DNA of 64,000 nt, from assembly GCA_039820925.1 (NCBI GenBank), contig JBCBPD010000002.1, positions 21,887 through 85,886 of the forward strand, read 5' to 3'. Positions 624 through 36,610 of the stretch are shown piece after piece. Origin of the DNA: Bacteroidota bacterium. Lineage in GTDB: Bacteria; Bacteroidota; Bacteroidia; Flavobacteriales; Flavobacteriaceae. A program made the translations under genes and the position numbers. Under the pieces are notes generated by a model. The model was not told the origin of the DNA. It did no database searches and saw only the letters and a list, made by a program, of their open reading frames with translations. Within the stretch, counting starts at the first letter, position 1; every line of letters begins with the position of its first letter.

Positions 624-1163
624 ATGGATGAATACGTTGACATCCTTGATGAAGAGGGAAACTACACGAATACCACCCTTTTGAAATCAGAAGCGCACCG
701 ACAGGGGCTGTTTCATTCAACCGTACACATTTGGTGTTATGACCCTTTAGGGTCTGTTTTGCTACAACAACGCGGCAAGCACAAAAAAACGTTTCCATTG
801 CTTTGGGATGTTTCGGTAGCGGGTCATGTGGCAGCTGGCGAAAGTATGGAACTGGGAGCACAACGGGAGATTTCCGAAGAGATTGGCGTTTCAATTCAGA
901 TTCAGAAGCTACAAAAACTCAAAGTGTTCAAAACGGAACATCGCCACTCTGAAACGCTCTTTGACCGGGAATTTACCCACACTTTTTTATATCCTTTACC
1001 CCAAGAAACGGAACTGACTCCACAAACGTCAGAGGTAGAAGCCCTAGAATGGTTTACGCTCGAAGCATTTGAGAAAATGGTTGCCTCGGAAGATTCTCGT
1101 TTGGTTCCCAACTCAGAAAACAGATATCAAGTGGTGGTTAACGCTTTGAAAGGAAAGCTTTAA
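624..1163 (+). CDS. NUDIX hydrolase, IPP-isomerase-like
   Basis: Nudix box GHVAAGESMELGAQREISEEIG; LLQQRGKHKKTFPLLWDVSVAGH. Confidence 0.8.
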   Translation: MDEYVDILDEEGNYTNTTLLKSEAHRQGLFHSTVHIWCYDPLGSVLLQQRGKHKKTFPLLWDVSVAGHVAAGESMELGAQREISEEIGVSIQIQKLQKLKVFKTEHRHSETLFDREFTHTFLYPLPQETELTPQTSEVEALEWFTLEAFEKMVASEDSRLVPNSENRYQVVVNALKGKL

Positions 1164-2539
1164 AACTCCCAACTGGGTGGTTCTATAGGCGCATCCAAAG
1201 AAAACTGGTGTTGTTTTCCACTAGCCATATCTTTTATAATGTAATATCCCCCTTCTAGTTCTTTAGGACCCAACAGGATAACACAAGGGACTTTTCGCCT
1301 ATCTGCATATTTCATCTGCTTTTGCATTTTAGCCGCAGTAGGATAAAAATCAACATTGTGGCCCATCTGTCTGTAACGCTTGACGAGTTTCATTGCAGCC
1401 AAAGCTTCTTTATCACCAAAGTTGAGGCATAGTATATGACTGGGGAGATTGAAATATTCAGGAAACAGCCCGAGTTCTTCCAATACCAAATAGATGCGGT
1501 CCAAACCAAAAGAAATACCAACGCCACTAACGTCTTTTAATCCAAAAATCCCAGTCAAGTCGTCATAACGTCCACCGCCACCAATGGACCCCATAGCTAT
1601 CCCTTCTGGCGCGGCCACTTCGAAAATTGCACCTGTATAATAGTTTAATCCACGAGCTAAGGTGACGTCCAATTCTAGTTTTGCAGTTTGTAAACCTAAT
1701 TCTTCGACCCAGGTATAGATTTCTTCTAGCTCTCCTACCCCTTCCAAACCAATCTCGGATTCAGATAAGAGCTTTTTCAATTGCTCAAACTGCTGGCTAA
1801 TATCCCCTTCCATTTGGAAAAGCGGGGCTGCTCTTTCAATCGCATGAGCCGATAATCCCCGCTCCATCATTTCGGCTTTGACTTTCTCTTCTCCTATCTT
1901 GTCCAACTTATCTAAAGCAACGGTAAAATCAATCAAAAGATGCTGTGCTCCAATGACCTCGGCTACTCCAGAAAGGATTTTTCGATTATTCATTTTGATG
2001 GTACAGCCTTCTAATCCCAAATCAGTAAAAATCGCATCATACAAGCTGACGAACTCAACCTCTTGCAAAAGCGATTTTGCCCCGACCACATCAGCATCGC
2101 ATTGGTAAAACTCGCGAAAACGCCCTTTTTGCGGACGGTCTGCTCTCCACACGGGTTGGATTTGGTATCGCTTGAAAGGAAAGGCAATCTCATTTTGGTG
2201 CATCACCACATAGCGGGCAAAAGGAACCGTTAAGTCATAACGCAGCGCTTTTTCTGTAATTTTTGGAGCTATTGTGGTTGAATTTTTTGAACTATAGGTG
2301 ACATCGTCCACTTTGGAGATAAAGTCACCAGAGTTCAGAATTTTGAAAATCAATCTATCCCCTTCTTCTCCATATTTTCCTAAAAGCGTTTCGGAATTCT
2401 CGAAAGATGGCGTCTCGATAGGCTCAAAACCATACCGTTCAAAATGTTTTTTGATGGTTTCGGTAATGTGCTGGCGTTTGGCTACTTCTGAAGGCGAAAA
2501 ATCTCGGGTTCCTTTAGGTAGAGATGGTTTTTGCGGCAT
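1160..2539 (-). CDS. hisS: Histidine--tRNA ligase
   Basis: PKGTRDF, RYDLTVPFAR, YQIQPVWRADRPQKGRFREFYQCDAD, LARGLNYYTG, GGGRYD. Start placed at ATG 2539, just downstream of the promoter. Confidence 0.97.
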   Translation of the reverse strand: MPQKPSLPKGTRDFSPSEVAKRQHITETIKKHFERYGFEPIETPSFENSETLLGKYGEEGDRLIFKILNSGDFISKVDDVTYSSKNSTTIAPKITEKALRYDLTVPFARYVVMHQNEIAFPFKRYQIQPVWRADRPQKGRFREFYQCDADVVGAKSLLQEVEFVSLYDAIFTDLGLEGCTIKMNNRKILSGVAEVIGAQHLLIDFTVALDKLDKIGEEKVKAEMMERGLSAHAIERAAPLFQMEGDISQQFEQLKKLLSESEIGLEGVGELEEIYTWVEELGLQTAKLELDVTLARGLNYYTGAIFEVAAPEGIAMGSIGGGGRYDDLTGIFGLKDVSGVGISFGLDRIYLVLEELGLFPEYFNLPSHILCLNFGDKEALAAMKLVKRYRQMGHNVDFYPTAAKMQKQMKYADRRKVPCVILLGPKELEGGYYIIKDMASGKQHQFSLDAPIEPPSWEF

Positions 2540-2556
2540 GATTTCAAATTCTCGTG

Positions 2557-2564: not shown

Positions 2565-2700
2565 CATGGATTCAAGCTTTGGATTCATCAATTCAAATTG
2601 CGCATTGATGAATTCCATCTGATTGATGCATCCAAAAGAATGTAATATTACAATCAGTATTGTAAAGTAAACACCCCCAAGTGATTTCCTTTTTGCTCTT

Positions 2701-2726
2701 GAGGCCGCCGAAAGGTGGCCTTTTTT
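2701..2726 (+). terminator. Rho-independent terminator (orphan)
   Basis: GGCCGCC-GAAA-GGTGGCC followed by TTTTTT; no plus-strand CDS lies directly upstream. Confidence 0.75.
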
Positions 2727-2869
2727 ATTCAACTAGGGTCAAATTAAAACAAACCTTGCAACCATCGATTTGCTCGGGGTATCTATCAATTCAAAACAGG
2801 CATAGGTCAATTCCAGTCATTACAATAGCGAAAAAGGGATTATTCTTGGAAAACAGTCTTTAATCACTT

Positions 2870-3076
2870 ATGAAAACTACTGCTTTCTTATCGTTTGGCT
2901 TATTTATTATTATCCTTTTTGCTTCCTGCTCTAAGCAAGAAGATGATATTGGCCTGCAAGGCAGTGCAGTTATTGATAGCCATATTGATTTTTCTAGCAA
3001 TCAATCACAAAATACAAATGGCGTCAACACTCAATTTGGCGACCATGAACAAACAGATGGGCCTATAGATGAATAA
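2870..3076 (+). CDS. Small lipoprotein/lipopeptide A (68 aa), C-terminus GDHEQTDGPIDE
   Basis: MK + hydrophobic stretch + lipobox LFAS-C20; acidic SKQEDD after Cys; C-terminal 12-mer shared with the neighbouring paralog. Confidence 0.8.
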   Translation: MKTTAFLSFGLFIIILFASCSKQEDDIGLQGSAVIDSHIDFSSNQSQNTNGVNTQFGDHEQTDGPIDE

Positions 3077-3175
3077 TTAGTTTTAGTATCTCGCATTTTG
3101 CCATAGGTCCAATCAGAATCATTTTAGACTAGAAAAAGGGCCATTCTTAAGAAGTAATCTTTAAATCTAACAAAT

Positions 3176-3334
3176 ATGAAATTCAACTTGATTTTTCTGT
3201 TTAGTCTTATTGTTGGCCTATTTATGGTTTCCTGTTCTGCCGAAGATGGGGAAATAGGGATACAAAATGAGGATAATTTACACGCTATTGAAACTGGTGA
3301 CCATGAACGAACAGATGGACCCATAGATGAGTGA
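3176..3334 (+). CDS. Small lipoprotein/lipopeptide B (52 aa), C-terminus GDHERTDGPIDE; absent from ORF track
   Basis: Hand translation: MKFNLIFLFSLIVGLFMVSCSAEDGEIGIQNEDNLHAIETGDHERTDGPIDE*. Lipobox FMVS-C20; paralog of 2870-3076. Confidence 0.8.
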   Translation: MKFNLIFLFSLIVGLFMVSCSAEDGEIGIQNEDNLHAIETGDHERTDGPIDE

Positions 3335-3367
3335 TGAGTTTTTGGCATATTACTTTTTGCCAAAGGC

Positions 3368-3838
3368 TTATTCCATAATCTGTTCAAACCACTGATACAA
3401 CTCTCCTTTAGTTATAACAGCACCTTGTTGAATCAACTCGAATTTATCTTGGTTTTTATCCTCGGAATAGGCTTTTGAAGCCGTTAAATACTCTACAAAA
3501 TCGGATTGAAAATTTCGTTTGAACCAAGAAAACCCTTGTTGGGTGCGCAAATCAATTTCGGGGTTCAGTACTTTCACCGAAAAGAGTTTCATTTCTTTTT
3601 CGGTCAAATGGAACAAATGCATATGCAATTCCGAGATGTTTTCGAGGTACTCCACACGGTTTAAAACGCCTTCCCAAATCAAATCACTGAATACATCCAA
3701 TTCTTGCTCGGCAACTTCAGGTTTGTCTTTTTTTAACGCAGACCATTCCTCACCCGTAATGGACTGTGTCGCCAAAAAATTAATGAATTCCGGATGGAGC
3801 TCCTCTAGTTGCTGTTGCGTGAGACGTGTGTATTTCAT
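3368..3838 (-). CDS. Conserved Bacteroidota hypothetical protein (DUF6495-like)
   Basis: MKYTRLTQQQLEELHPEFINFLATQSITGEEW...ELDVFSDLIWEGVL. Start set to ATG 3838, downstream of TAnnTTTG (3845-3852). Confidence 0.75.
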   Translation of the reverse strand: MKYTRLTQQQLEELHPEFINFLATQSITGEEWSALKKDKPEVAEQELDVFSDLIWEGVLNRVEYLENISELHMHLFHLTEKEMKLFSVKVLNPEIDLRTQQGFSWFKRNFQSDFVEYLTASKAYSEDKNQDKFELIQQGAVITKGELYQWFEQIME

Positions 3839-3851
3839 GAGGTGCAAAAAT

Positions 3852-3904: not shown

Positions 3905-6900
3905 TTAGTTGAAAATGTAGCGCACCCCAACTTGTGCCTGCCATCTGGATAGCAAACGCGTATCAGCAGAGAAGGTTTCGTTACGATTCTCATCAAAAGT
4001 ATAAATCGGAGCCTGAGTGAAATCAGGAACAAAATTGTTTGGGTCTGGGTCGGCATCTTGGAAGGATACACCCAAAACTTGGTCAAAATCTTGTCGTTCT
4101 ACAACACCCCAATTGGAATTGATAAGGTTACCTACATTAAGGATATCCAAACTAAGTTGGAACTTGTTTTTATCATTGACTTTAATGTCCTGAAGGACTT
4201 TAACGTCCCATCTTCCTCTCCAAGGCGCTAGTGCACCATAGCGCTCAGCATACTGTCCGCGTCTGTCGCTTAAGTAATCATCTTGTTGGATGAAAGCTTC
4301 AAAAGCTTCCGCTTGCCCGGGACCGCTAAAGGTCATTTGACCTATTTCAGCTGAAGTAGGAATATACAAAAGGTCGTTTATGGAAGAACCATCATTGTTG
4401 ATGTCGCCCCCATAGATGTAATTGAACCTTCCGCTTCGCGCATACTCAAAGAAAGATGAAATCGTAGTCCCTGTTTTAAAGGACTTGGACAACACCCCAA
4501 TGATTCTGTGGGTATCACCATATCTTGAATTGGATAATACGTCTCGGTTTGCATTACCTACAATTGCGTTACCTGCGAAAGCGTCTCCAGTGATTTCTGC
4601 ATCAATGGAGTTTACTTCTTTGGCATCTAGGTAGCTATAAGCCAATTGAGTGTATAGCCCGTTATCGAAAGTCTTTTGCAACTTCAAGGTAGCATTCCAA
4701 ATTCTTCCTTTATCAGAATTGGTAAATACGAAAGCACTATTGGGTCCAAATAGCTGTGCCTTATCATCGTTGGTGTACAGTTCACGATTGTCCACTCCAA
4801 CCAAATTCGAGGAAGGGTTACCCAATCCCCAGTTTTGCACGTGAGCCGCGTTGATGTCCTTGGTATAAGAAACGTCAGCGGTTAAGATAATCCCATTGTC
4901 AAAACGTTTGTCTAAACCAATATTGGTTCTCCAAACCTGTGGCCATTGGAAATCAGGGTCAACTACTTGATAGAAGAAAAAGTCTGTTCCTTGAACTTGG
5001 TTCCCCAACCAAACAAACGGGAAACGTCCTGTAAACAAACCTGAACCTCCACGAAGCTGAAGGGTTTGGTTTCCTTTGACATCCCAATTGAATCCAAATC
5101 TTGGAGAGATCAACCAATCGCTTGTAGGCAATTGTTCTGAATCAATGGTAATACGTTCATTCGTGTCTGGGTCAAAATATAGAATATCTGGAGCGTAAGT
5201 ACCTCCTTCAGCGAGTGTACCTCCTTTACGGTCAATATTTTGTGCAATTTTTTGTCTGGTATCGAAATACAAGGGACGGTCAAATCGAACACCGTAAGTA
5301 AGTTTCAAGCGGTCTGTAACGTCCCATTGGTCTTGCAGGTAGAAAGACAATTGCCCCACATTGGTCTCGGCCAAAGCCCAACCCCCAGGTGTGCCATCAT
5401 CAAATTGATTGTTGTTGTTTGCTGTTGCAATAGCAGCATCAAAAGCACCTTGGTAGAAAGCGACCAAACCAGCCTCATTGGCCGGGTCACGATACTCAGC
5501 AATGGAATTGGTGGGGAAGAAAACCCCTTGAGCGCCATACGCACCAAGGTTAAAGGAGTTGTCAAATTGGAATCTTTCGTAAGAGAAACCAACAGTATAG
5601 GTGTGGTCTCCTTTAAAGATGTTCAAGTTATCTGTAATCTGGAATACCTTCTGGTCCAAACGGTTGTTGATGGAAAACGGTTCGTGTCCAGCAATGATGT
5701 AGTTCGAACTTCCGGTCTCATCCAAAATCACGATACTTGGCGCGGGTGTTGAAAATGGATTTCTAAAATCGTCAAAGTGGGTATACCCCATCTGGAGCTT
5801 GTTGGTAGCCGAAGAGGATAAAGTAGAGTTCAATTCAACTTGTACCGAACGAATGTTATTGTTGATTTCGTAACCCGCGTTTTCAAACTGCAAGGTTTGG
5901 GTACTAGGCCCTCTAAACGTTATCGCATCTCGGTTGGCAGGTTTTCCTTTGGAAGCATTCAAGAAGTTGTAAATCACAGCCAAACGGTTGTTGTCATTGA
6001 TGTTCCAATCCAGTTTGATGATTCCTTTGGTACTTTCTTGGTCAAAATTGAAGCCTGTAATAGCACCTGGGTTGTAGAAAATATCATTTCCAGAAGCATC
6101 TTGTCCTATAACCACCTGACGGAGGATATTATCCACCAACTGCATATCTGACTGCAACACACGCGATTCACTAATTCCACCTGTACCGGTATTTGGGACA
6201 AAACCATCTGTACCGAGCTCAGTTAGGTCGTCCTTCTCAAAGTTTACGAAAAAGAAAAGTTTGTTTTTGACGATGGGTCCACCAATACTCAAACCGTATT
6301 GTGTTTGTTCCAATCCGGTTTTGGTCACATCATCGCCGTTGATTTTACCACCGGTCAAGTCATCATTTCTGAAGAAACCATATACGGTTCCGTAGAAATC
6401 GTTAGTACCACTTTTGGTTACGGCGTTTACCGAAGCGCCAGTAAATCCAGATTGAGTTACATCATATGGTGCAGTAGTTACTTGGATTTGGTCAATCGCA
6501 TCCAAGGAAATCGGCTGCGCATTGGTTTGCCCTCCAGGAGTTGCCGCATCCAAACCAAAGGGGTTGTTGAAGATGGCACCATCCAGGGAAAAGTTGTTGT
6601 ATTGGTCATTTCTACCCCCGAAAGAAAGTCCTGAGGCTCCGGAAGAAGCGGCAGGTTCCAATCGGATGAAATCGTTTGCAGACCTTGAAATGGTTGGGAG
6701 TCTTGTCAGCTCACGTCGCCCAACACTCGTTTCAGCGCCTGTACGGTCACTTCCAAAAGTTCCAGATTGGTCTGACACCACAACCACTTCGTCCAGTGCT
6801 TGGCTATCCGATGCAAGTTGGGTGCTGTAGTTAAACGTTTTACCCAATGTTAGAAAGATTTCATTTCGAACATCCGATTTGAATCCAACATAAGAAATGG

Positions 6901-7135
6901 TTACTTCGTAGGGTCCACCAATCCTTAGGTTTAATAGATTGAAACGACCTTCTTCGTTGGTAATGGCTCCGTAACGGGTTCCAGTAGGGGTATGAACGGC
7001 TACCACATTGGCACCGTAAAGGGGTTCACCCTGGTCATCCGCGACAGCACCACGGATATTTGAGGTAGTAACCTGGGCATAACCCGAGGTAATGAAGGCG
7101 AAAACCAACACCACCAAAGGCATAATTTTCTTCAT
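3905..7135 (-). CDS. TonB-dependent receptor, Oar-like, with N-terminal carboxypeptidase-regulatory-like domain
   Basis: Signal peptide; GAVADDQGEPLYGANV; GGRNDQYNNFSLDG; SGFTGASVNAVTKSGTN; C-terminal VGVRYIFN. Confidence 0.9.
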   Translation of the reverse strand: MKKIMPLVVLVFAFITSGYAQVTTSNIRGAVADDQGEPLYGANVVAVHTPTGTRYGAITNEEGRFNLLNLRIGGPYEVTISYVGFKSDVRNEIFLTLGKTFNYSTQLASDSQALDEVVVVSDQSGTFGSDRTGAETSVGRRELTRLPTISRSANDFIRLEPAASSGASGLSFGGRNDQYNNFSLDGAIFNNPFGLDAATPGGQTNAQPISLDAIDQIQVTTAPYDVTQSGFTGASVNAVTKSGTNDFYGTVYGFFRNDDLTGGKINGDDVTKTGLEQTQYGLSIGGPIVKNKLFFFVNFEKDDLTELGTDGFVPNTGTGGISESRVLQSDMQLVDNILRQVVIGQDASGNDIFYNPGAITGFNFDQESTKGIIKLDWNINDNNRLAVIYNFLNASKGKPANRDAITFRGPSTQTLQFENAGYEINNNIRSVQVELNSTLSSSATNKLQMGYTHFDDFRNPFSTPAPSIVILDETGSSNYIIAGHEPFSINNRLDQKVFQITDNLNIFKGDHTYTVGFSYERFQFDNSFNLGAYGAQGVFFPTNSIAEYRDPANEAGLVAFYQGAFDAAIATANNNNQFDDGTPGGWALAETNVGQLSFYLQDQWDVTDRLKLTYGVRFDRPLYFDTRQKIAQNIDRKGGTLAEGGTYAPDILYFDPDTNERITIDSEQLPTSDWLISPRFGFNWDVKGNQTLQLRGGSGLFTGRFPFVWLGNQVQGTDFFFYQVVDPDFQWPQVWRTNIGLDKRFDNGIILTADVSYTKDINAAHVQNWGLGNPSSNLVGVDNRELYTNDDKAQLFGPNSAFVFTNSDKGRIWNATLKLQKTFDNGLYTQLAYSYLDAKEVNSIDAEITGDAFAGNAIVGNANRDVLSNSRYGDTHRIIGVLSKSFKTGTTISSFFEYARSGRFNYIYGGDINNDGSSINDLLYIPTSAEIGQMTFSGPGQAEAFEAFIQQDDYLSDRRGQYAERYGALAPWRGRWDVKVLQDIKVNDKNKFQLSLDILNVGNLINSNWGVVERQDFDQVLGVSFQDADPDPNNFVPDFTQAPIYTFDENRNETFSADTRLLSRWQAQVGVRYIFN

Positions 7136-7179
7136 AATGAGCTAGTTATAAGTTTTTCGAGTTCCTGCAAACATAGGAC

Positions 7180-7209
7180 AAAAAAAAGAGCTATGCACGC
7201 ATAGCTCTT
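7180..7209 (-). terminator. Terminator of the rpsF-rpsR-rplI operon
   Basis: Minus strand AAGAGCTATGCGTGCATAGCTCTTTTTTT. Confidence 0.8.
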
Positions 7210-7235
7210 AACAAGTTATTAACTATAATTTGATG

Positions 7236-7688
7236 TTATTTTGCCTCGGCAATCACTTCAAATGGAAAATCTACAATTACCTCTCTGTGTAAACGGATTT
7301 GGGCGTTGTATGGCCCAACTCTTTTAATGGTTCCACCCTTGATGGCGATAAACTTTCGATCTACGGCTTGACCCGCTTTTTCCAAAGCAGCAGCCAAATC
7401 AATATTACTTACGGAACCGAACAATTTGTCACCCGCACCTACCTTAGCTGGAATTCTAATTTCCAAACCTTTAATTGCGGTTGCCTTTTCGTTCGCTTCA
7501 TCGATAACCTTCTTTTCTTTGTAGGCGCGTTGTCTTAGGTTCTCGGCCAAAACCTTTTTTGCAGAAGGTGTTGCCAATGCCGCTAGCCCTTGAGGAATCA
7601 AATAGTTTCTACCATAACCGTTCTTAACGGTTACGATATCATCCTTAAACCCTAAATCTTGTACGTCTTGCTTTAAAATAATTTCCAT
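7236..7688 (-). CDS. rplI: 50S ribosomal protein L9
   Basis: MEIILKQDVQDLG...VKNGYGRNYLIPQG, KLFGSV. Confidence 0.98.
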   Translation of the reverse strand: MEIILKQDVQDLGFKDDIVTVKNGYGRNYLIPQGLAALATPSAKKVLAENLRQRAYKEKKVIDEANEKATAIKGLEIRIPAKVGAGDKLFGSVSNIDLAAALEKAGQAVDRKFIAIKGGTIKRVGPYNAQIRLHREVIVDFPFEVIAEAK

Positions 7689-8578: not shown

Positions 8579-9271
8579 ATGAAACTAAAAAGTATAATCG
8601 TTGACGACTCCTCCATGCAGCGCATGGCCGTGGCGAAGTTGGTCAACAATCATCCTCATTTAGCCCTGGTCGCAGAATACAGCAACGCAATCGAGGCTAA
8701 AAACGGTTTGAAAAACCACGAAATCGACCTAATCTTCCTCGACGTAGAAATGCCAATCATCAACGGCTTTGACCTTTTGGAAGCATTGGAAAACCCACCT
8801 CAAGTCATTTTAATTACCGGAAAGCCCGATTACGCACTGAAGGCTTTCGATTATGACGTAACCGACTACCTACACAAACCAATAACCATGGCACGTTTTG
8901 AGGCTTCTGTAAAAAGAGCTGTTACCAAATACGAGCAAATGAATCGGGTTGATGAGGACGAAGAGCATATTTTTGTAAAAAGCAACCTAAAGAAGCGAAA
9001 AGTAATCCTTAATGATATCAAATGGATTGAAGCTTTGGGTGATTATATCAAGTTGGTGACTGATGAAGCAAACATTGTGATTCTTTCTACAATGAAGTCT
9101 TTCGAAAAGCAGTTGCCACCAGAAAAGTTTTTGCGTATCCATAAGTCGTATATCGTAAATCTGGAGAAAATTGAAAAGTTCAACAGTAAGAATGTGGAAG
9201 TAGGGGGACGACAGATACCATTAAGTAGAAACAAGAAAACCGAGTTGGCTGAAGCTTTAGCCAACGTATAA
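8579..9271 (+). CDS. LytTR family response regulator
   Basis: REC domain (IIVDD, LIFLDVEMP, DYLHKP) plus LytTR domain (WIEALGDY, FLRIHKSYIVNL). Confidence 0.93.
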   Translation: MKLKSIIVDDSSMQRMAVAKLVNNHPHLALVAEYSNAIEAKNGLKNHEIDLIFLDVEMPIINGFDLLEALENPPQVILITGKPDYALKAFDYDVTDYLHKPITMARFEASVKRAVTKYEQMNRVDEDEEHIFVKSNLKKRKVILNDIKWIEALGDYIKLVTDEANIVILSTMKSFEKQLPPEKFLRIHKSYIVNLEKIEKFNSKNVEVGGRQIPLSRNKKTELAEALANV

Positions 9272-36263: not shown

Positions 36264-36344
36264 TTCGTTTACGTGAATAAACGGGAGTAAAGTATGTGTT
36301 GCATACGTAAACTTTTATCCCGAAAGTTTAACAATGATTATTGA

Positions 36345-36545
36345 AATCTGGCAGGTCTCCTGGCTTGTTCAGTTGAATTTACCTTCCCATTCTATTGAAC
36401 AGTGGTACGAAGAAATTCAACCCTTTCTTGAAGAAAGAAAGTATGCTTAAAACACACCATGAACTTACAGTTGCGGGAACAGCTTTGGTTTTGCACCAAA
36501 TTCCCTTTTAATCCCTTGATATTGCATCGAGGGAACCAAAATTCT
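36345..36545 (-). ncRNA. Cobalamin (AdoCbl) riboswitch
   Basis: Minus strand GGTTCCC...AAAAGGGAATTTGGTGCAAAACCAAAGCTGTTCCCGCAACTGTAA...CCACTG...TGGGAAGG...AAGCCAGGAGACCTGCC, containing the B12 box and all conserved segments. Confidence 0.93.
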
Positions 36546-36610
36546 CCGCGAAAGTAAGGATTCTGTTTAATCTTTTCTCCCAAAAATCAAATAAGCTTAC
36601 TTTTGGTTTC

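Follow-up and report, generated by a model that had tools for sequence, protein, structure and literature searches.

Genes and features of the locus

The window, by which we mean the whole stretch of 64,000 nucleotides that was analysed, comes from a marine member of Flavobacteriaceae near Flagellimonas, Allomuricauda and Croceitalea. Between hisS (1160-2542, minus strand) and the gene for a DUF6495 protein (3368-3841, minus strand) it carries two small ORFs on the plus strand, here called ORF A and ORF B, together with several non-coding features:

2567..2615, plus strand: upstream element copy 1, with TGGATTC, TCAATTC and TGAATTC at 21-bp phasing, next to the hisS promoter
2671..2731, plus strand: conserved 55-nt block, ACACCCCCAAGTGATTTCC...GAGGCCGCCGAAAGGTGGCCTTTTTT, ending in an intrinsic-terminator hairpin
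2765..2813, plus strand: upstream element copy 2, with TCGATTT, TCAATTC and TCAATTC at 21-bp phasing
2870..3076, plus strand: ORF A, micro-lipoprotein precursor of 68 aa; signal peptide residues 1-19, Cys20 codon at 2927-2929
3102..3114, plus strand: degenerate proximal repeat CATAGGTCCAATC upstream of ORF B
3176..3334, plus strand: ORF B, micro-lipoprotein precursor of 52 aa; signal peptide residues 1-19, Cys20 codon at 3233-3235
3334..3371: weak hairpin ATGAGTTTTTGGCA / TGCCAAAGGCTTAT, located where ORF B and the DUF6495 gene converge, between their stops

Both ORFs open with MK; a hydrophobic stretch of about 16 residues then leads to S-C-S, with the cysteine at residue 20. The lipobox reads F-A-S-C in ORF A and M-V-S-C in ORF B, and across 10 family members K2, S19, C20 and S21 are invariant. 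A basic n-region, an h-region, the lipobox cysteine and a small residue at position -1 are thus all present, and on these features we class both ORFs as lipoprotein precursors of the signal peptidase II type. The residues after the cysteine are SKQEDD in ORF A and SAEDGE in ORF B, and then come IGLQ and IGIQ, respectively. The mature peptide of ORF A has 49 residues (pI ~4, 10 of them Asp or Glu), including a unique linker of 26 residues and the tail GDHEQTDGPIDE at 3038-3073. That of ORF B has 33 residues (pI ~4, 11 Asp or Glu); its export signal, considered below, is followed by the conserved segment IGIQNEDNLHAIETG and then by the tail DHERTDGPIDE (the 12-mer lies at 3296-3331), and ORF B is a typical member of the family. 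Throughout the family, mature peptides of 33-59 aa are very acidic; the mature GRAVY determined for the pair is about -1.1. AlphaFold2, given a four-sequence alignment, returned a pLDDT of about 50 over the mature part and no fold; the mature part is predicted to be disordered. A previous sequence-only reading of this DNA had described two adjacent ORFs (68 and 52 aa) with Cys20, an acidic stretch behind it, IG[L/I]Q and a common terminal 12-mer, and had taken both for lipoproteins. Coordinates and residues agree with this description, and an SPII-type leader with Cys20 is present in both ORFs. In the six frames of the 64-kb window the 12-mer GDHE[Q/R]TDGPIDE has no further occurrence. With hisS adjacent, a His attenuator was also considered and rejected, since each peptide contains just two His, the genes are transcribed divergently from hisS and the leader is secretory.

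In all loci examined, the neighbours include hisS, NUDIX, peptidase M42, the DUF6495 gene and a TonB-dependent receptor, and further ribosomal proteins S6/S18/L9, an orphan LytTR regulator and PriA. A modifying enzyme, a peptidase-exporter or a sensor kinase was found near the array in none of the syntenic loci. Between loci, the TonB-dependent receptor (3905-7135, minus strand) shows 97-98% identity, compared with about 87% for HisS and 87-95% for DUF6495, a gap that suggests recombination, gene flow or a replaced HisS C-terminal domain. Several UniRef entries name the DUF6495 protein 'Histidyl-tRNA synthetase', which is probably an annotation carry-over from its position beside hisS. Elsewhere in the window, a cobalamin riboswitch (RF00174, 101.7 bits) lies at 36333-36555 on the minus strand.

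A narrow family of intact small genes

Relatives of ORF A and ORF B occur as one to three tandem copies at the same site in seven related marine metagenome or MAG loci, always flanked by hisS and the DUF6495 gene, which both lie on the opposite strand. There is one copy in L006 and L017, two in the window, L001 and L015, and three in L013. The family amounts to ~10 protein clusters among the 5.8 billion searched, and a HMMER pass over 1.84 billion representatives yielded nothing beyond it. Searches of Pfam, NCBIfam, PHROGs, PADLOC and PDB sequences gave signal-peptide noise only, which bears out the earlier statement that no characterised family matches. A metagenome scan returned loci of this family and nothing else, and a scan of viral contigs found no relatives. 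The scan of a genome collection found no family members, only unrelated lipoproteins with the SCSAEDGE leader, although its GDHE pattern demanded specific residues before the motif, so that divergent tails may escape it. The carriers form a narrow clade of marine Flavobacteriaceae near Flagellimonas/Croceitalea.

The start codon, lipobox and stop are kept in all of the 12+ copies from the 7 loci, and indels are multiples of three. For nine members of 52-54 aa, pN/pS (Nei-Gojobori) was 0.58 in the signal peptide, 0.26 in the N-terminal mature segment and 0.53 in the last 11 residues, values that carry limited weight because the sample is small and phylogenetically close. We regard ORF A and ORF B, judged by their coding patterns, as real protein-coding genes under purifying selection. 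A search for RNA runs containing the sequence returned none.

The same values bear on the C-terminal motif, which the sequence-only reading had put forward as a conserved core. The tail turned out to be less constrained than the N-terminal mature segment, largely the opposite of what a core should show in homologues. The most conserved portion of the mature peptide is instead SAE[D/N/E]GEIG[I/M]Q-x-EDNL-x-A-x-ETG, just after the lipid anchor. At least four types of tail can be distinguished:

type I: GDHE[RQ]TDGPIDE, in ORF A and ORF B of the window and in copy 1 of L001
type II: GGGEEVS[H/L]EGPIDE
type III: VG[G/D]DEIRSQEPEDE
type IV: a 79-aa form with the end DDEISSQGPIDE

Homologues thus end not only in the 12-mer but also in GGGEEVSHEGPIDE, VGDDEIRSQEPEDE, DDEISSQGPIDE and GDHERTDEPSTD, the last being the end of L001 copy 2, which is listed under type I. 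Common to all types is only the C-terminal signature [G/E]-P-x-[D/T]-[D/E]-COOH: the proline at -4 never varies, and D/E almost always fills both final positions, behind middles that otherwise differ. Since the tail falls into four types, the 12-mer is not a feature of the family. What stands of the proposed core is the short C-terminal signature and the existence of discrete tail types that are conserved among orthologues. Within one tail type, orthologues differ only synonymously (pN 0, pS 0.17-0.29), and therefore the tails are not drifting freely. A His-based metal site is likewise not a family feature, because the type III tail has no His. An EF-hand in the tail was rejected, as it would be out of register by one position and the tail ends short of position 12; neither a canonical EF-hand nor a dockerin loop could be aligned.

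Tandem duplication and the mosaic nature of ORF A

ORF A and ORF B form a tandem duplication with a unit of ~300 bp, in which homology extends into the non-coding DNA on either side. The A-B junction is tiled, independently and without a single difference, by contigs of two further sequencing runs, and is therefore not an assembly artefact. The two 12-mers differ by four synonymous changes (ggc/ggt, ggg/gga, cct/ccc and gaa/gag) and one non-synonymous change (caa/cga, Q/R), exactly as had been claimed. The pattern is not due to chance (Nei-Gojobori pS 0.53, pN 0.04; four of five changes synonymous, binomial p=0.008) and supports the earlier claim of selection on the peptide: in this genome the tail is under purifying selection.

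In its DNA, ORF A is a mosaic. Likeness to B-type units is limited to the upstream element and to the stretch that starts at 3037, where the 12-mer begins, and the sharp change from linker to core is therefore a homology breakpoint and not only a gradient of constraint. For the leader and linker of ORF A, that is, its 5' two-thirds, no orthologue was found in any database searched. The synonymous excess past the breakpoint nevertheless argues that the tail is kept by selection.

A variable slot between hisS and DUF6495

The position occupied by ORF A and ORF B holds different genes in different relatives. It is empty in Maribacter (L022), Croceitalea (L023) and a MAG (L008, whose DUF6495 is 89% identical to that of the window), with 30-86 bp between the DUF6495 gene and hisS. 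In other relatives it holds larger lipoproteins in the same strand relation as ORF A/B (coordinates are those of the respective loci):

L009, 4175-4390, minus strand: 71 aa, one CWD...NNDG...DC repeat
L010, 4319-5296, minus strand: 325 aa, three CWD...NNDG...DC repeats and a C-terminal domain
L011 (4309-5076, minus strand), L012 and L021: 255 aa, two CWD...NNDG...DC repeats and a C-terminal domain
L020, Flagellimonas maritima: 229 aa, collagen-like, starting SCSGEDGEQGIQGKQGETG

A similar leader of MK..SCS, acidic residues and G-x-G-x-Q precedes the different slot payloads, and the IG[L/I]Q of ORF A/B corresponds to the first G-x-y turns of the larger proteins. At the DNA level, homology of the leader is seen with L020, L005 and L004. 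In other words, the micro-lipoproteins share with the collagen-like and dockerin-like lipoproteins the same slot, the same upstream element and a homologous leader. The resemblance is confined to this part: hhalign of micro-lipoproteins against the large slot proteins aligned residues 1-29 and 1-36, i.e. the leader only, and profile comparison of the mature part could not demonstrate homology past it. The mature parts of ORF A/B contain neither GXY runs nor Cys-bounded CWD...NNDG...DC repeats. A likeness between TDGPIDE and NDGVVDE of the slot proteins was noted by eye only and is not relied on, as hhalign matched the leader alone.

Variation is also found at short range. Variants in the metagenome run X2 include an empty slot, a single copy and a different 3' end, so copy number and tails vary inside one metagenome. 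We read the locus as a hypervariable surface-lipoprotein slot, of which the micro-lipoproteins are one state.

Two observations concern the larger slot proteins themselves. The lipoproteins of L009, L010 and L011 carry one to three Cys-bounded acidic repeats of the form CWDxNGNG...D(I/V)NNDG..D..DC; matches of the large slot proteins to Dockerin_1 are below threshold, and the repeats appear to be uncharacterised, putative Ca2+-binding surface repeats. In L005 (Flagellimonas sp. 389), a LytTR-family regulator (4974-5741, minus strand) that is 28% identical to that of the window divergently adjoins two tandem collagen-like lipoproteins (5965-7274, plus strand) that bear the SCSAEDGE leader; the intergenic region between regulator and lipoproteins showed no TCAATTC repeats.

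Upstream elements and terminators

The two copies of the upstream element are the only sites with at most one mismatch in the 64 kb. The ATG of ORF A follows 56 nt after the end of copy 2, which is a candidate for the activator site and the promoter region of the array. Direct repeats of 9 bp with a TCAATTC core and a 12-bp spacer likewise precede the slot gene in L001, L006, L013, L017 and L020, lying at 6060-6100 on the minus strand in the last. In L009, L010 and L011 only the proximal TCAATTC is kept at ≤1 mismatch, the distal repeat being degenerate in L010/L011. The distance from the element to the ATG is about 56-61 nt (window and L010/L011). Copy 1 sits inside a long inverted repeat (2578-2636) with 15-nt arms that are 93% complementary and 29 nt apart; this repeat encloses a perfect 9-bp palindrome, TTCATCAAT...ATTGATGAA, and overlaps the presumed -33 region of the hisS promoter.

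The 55-nt block lies 3' of element copy 1, and its terminator consists of a stem at 2701-2722 and a following T-run. It is invariant in five loci with variable flanks, and it is found in all micro-lipoprotein loci and is absent where the slot gene is large. The block is a candidate for a small RNA of ~80 nt or a leftover terminator. Rfam returned no family over the region, only a single weak terminator-like match. Because there is no terminator between ORF A and ORF B, ORF B may be co-transcribed with ORF A. The hairpin at 3334..3371 is a possible terminator shared by the two convergent genes.

The spacing of the repeats recalls that of LytTR regulators, for which 9-bp repeats with a 12-bp spacer are described (PMC2766830), and an orphan LytTR response regulator is encoded at 8579-9271, 5 kb from the array. 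The TCAATTC repeats match no known LytTR consensus, and the regulator is kept at 98% identity in L008, where the slot is empty. A LytTR regulator acting on the TCAATTC repeats may be considered a lead only.

Tethered acidic surface peptides as the preferred reading

Lipoproteins of Bacteroidota are exported to the surface by a minimal signal Q-A-(D/E)2 or K-(D/E)2, with SDDFE in F. johnsoniae (PMC5080379). Residues +2 to +5 of ORF B (S-A-E-D) fit Q-A-(D/E)2, and ORF B and most of the family read C-S-A-E-[D/N/E]-G-E. In ORF A (C-S-K-Q-E-D-D) the K is at +3 and the acidic pair comes one position later than in the optimal C-X-K-(D/E)2. A motif of the K-(D/E)2 or Q-A-(D/E)2 kind is thus found within +2 to +6, and unrelated lipoproteins of Flagellimonas bear the identical SCSAEDGE leader. 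The sequence-only reading had interpreted the acidic residues as an export signal, and the S-A-E-D of ORF B agrees with the published one.

Based on these features, the most probable reading, to which we assign a probability of about 0.5, is that the tandem genes encode tethered acidic surface peptides at a hypervariable surface-lipoprotein locus. Transcription would probably need a factor that binds the 21-bp-phased repeats. The precursor would be cleaved and acylated at Cys20. The acidic residues at +4/+5 would then serve as the Bacteroidota lipoprotein export signal, and the peptide would be flipped to the cell surface; surface export by the LES pathway is inferred because S-A-E-D of ORF B fits Q-A-(D/E)2. 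The peptide would remain tethered there; its acidic tail would be flexible and its carboxyl terminus, ...[G/E]-P-x-[D/T]-[D/E], free. The weakest step is the guess that this tail is the working end, a small ligand for docking or for binding cations. Rather than acting as a released signal, it would contribute to a variable surface trait, for instance charge, adhesion, the binding of Ca2+/metal or recognition by phages or neighbours, a trait of the kind expected to differ between strains.

Several other explanations have to be weighed against the tethered-peptide reading. It might be argued that the array is evolutionary debris, namely what truncation or decay has left of the N-terminal part of a larger slot lipoprotein, functionless and still open by chance. 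The likeness to the larger slot proteins is indeed confined to the promoter element, the leader and the first G-x-G-x-Q residues, the distribution is very narrow, copy number varies up to the point of an empty slot in some strains, and no fold is predicted. However, decaying stumps would hardly be intact in all 12+ copies, with pN/pS of the mature part well below 1 and tails conserved with synonymous change; nor would ORF A have retained its tail when everything else was replaced, or tandem amplification have reached three copies. We consider debris unlikely. Llp of phage T5 is a small lipoprotein that caps, shields or modulates FhuA. An accessory of the TonB-dependent receptor (3905-7135, minus strand), capping, shielding or modulating it in a similar way, would be in keeping with the 97-98% identical receptor that lies two genes away in every family locus. 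Yet the small genes are convergent with the receptor operon and lie outside it, and the two do not travel together: L020 has a slot lipoprotein and no receptor, L022 and L023 have the receptor and an empty slot, and L008 has neither. Moreover, the tail types differ while the receptor is nearly identical. Putative lids proposed for non-SusC transporters (bioRxiv 10.1101/2023.03.17.533168) are lipoproteins encoded beside their transporter, whereas conserved proximity and co-orientation are not seen here. Such a role is quite improbable.

The sequence-only reading had favoured a precursor of the peptide-signal or RiPP kind, with a tail that is displayed on the surface or set free by proteolysis and a sensor encoded elsewhere. 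One may add that the tail would be a strain-specific signal (pherotype) and that the array is perhaps auto-induced via a LytTR-type regulator. Discrete tail types that are conserved among orthologues and stand behind a more conserved leader would suit such a system, as would direct repeats in the 9-bp plus 12-bp layout typical of LytTR regulators (PMC2766830) and the orphan LytTR response regulator 5 kb off (8579-9271). Nonetheless, the reading is not supported. All syntenic loci lack a sensor kinase, a peptidase-exporter and a modifying enzyme, so that linkage to modification, processing, export or sensing is not found, and a processing site is not apparent. The 12-mer is not kept among homologues, the repeats fit no known LytTR consensus, and the LytTR regulator is 98% identical in L008 in spite of its empty slot. 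In addition, the same upstream element precedes ordinary, larger structural lipoproteins in other genera, and these occupy the same slot. A pheromone or RiPP precursor is thus highly improbable. Still fainter is the chance that the peptides are polymorphic surface tags, tethered or released, with C-terminal types under selection and a LytTR-style switch, serving kin recognition or a quorum-type function and possibly coupled to an sRNA. As it stands, the array represents an uncharacterised, narrow small-protein family and not a signalling system.

Should the peptides be produced and exposed on the surface, they would rank with the smallest surface lipoproteins that have been proposed in Bacteroidota. 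How lipoproteins are flipped across the outer membrane is still poorly understood, and a lipid anchor, an LES and ~30 residues would then make a minimal natural substrate for studying the process. The locus also illustrates how a conserved promoter and leader joined to exchangeable payloads vary the cell surface between close marine strains.

Comparison with known systems

Pheromone and RiPP precursors resemble the micro-lipoproteins in being small, in having a conserved leader and a variable C-terminal part of discrete types, and in occurring as tandem arrays. However, the leader of the micro-lipoproteins is a Sec/SPII signal and not an enzyme-recognition leader, and there are no linked genes for maturation, export or sensing. 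Sex pheromones of Enterococcus are cut from lipoprotein signal peptides. Entericidin A/B of Enterobacteria likewise come from a pair of adjacent genes, each for a lipoprotein of about 40-70 aa. Entericidins are amphipathic and act on membranes, whereas the micro-lipoproteins are strongly acidic and hydrophilic; they give no match to Pfam Entericidin (PF08085) and do not have the character of amphipathic peptides.

With the larger slot lipoproteins of Flagellimonas/Allomuricauda relatives the micro-lipoproteins share position, strand, the TCAATTC element, an acidic character and the leader, including G-x-G-I-Q after the LES, but they do without the Cys-bounded repeats, the GXY run and the C-terminal domain. 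With the LES lipoproteins of Bacteroidota (Lauber et al. 2016, PMC5080379) they have in common the SPII leader, Cys at +1, and polar and at least two acidic residues within +2 to +6, differing in the mature part of only 33-59 aa, the lack of a folded domain and the conserved acidic end of the tail. The micro-lipoproteins are thus a new small-protein family of very narrow distribution, one that belongs among the LES-type surface lipoproteins of Bacteroidota, which are themselves a known kind.
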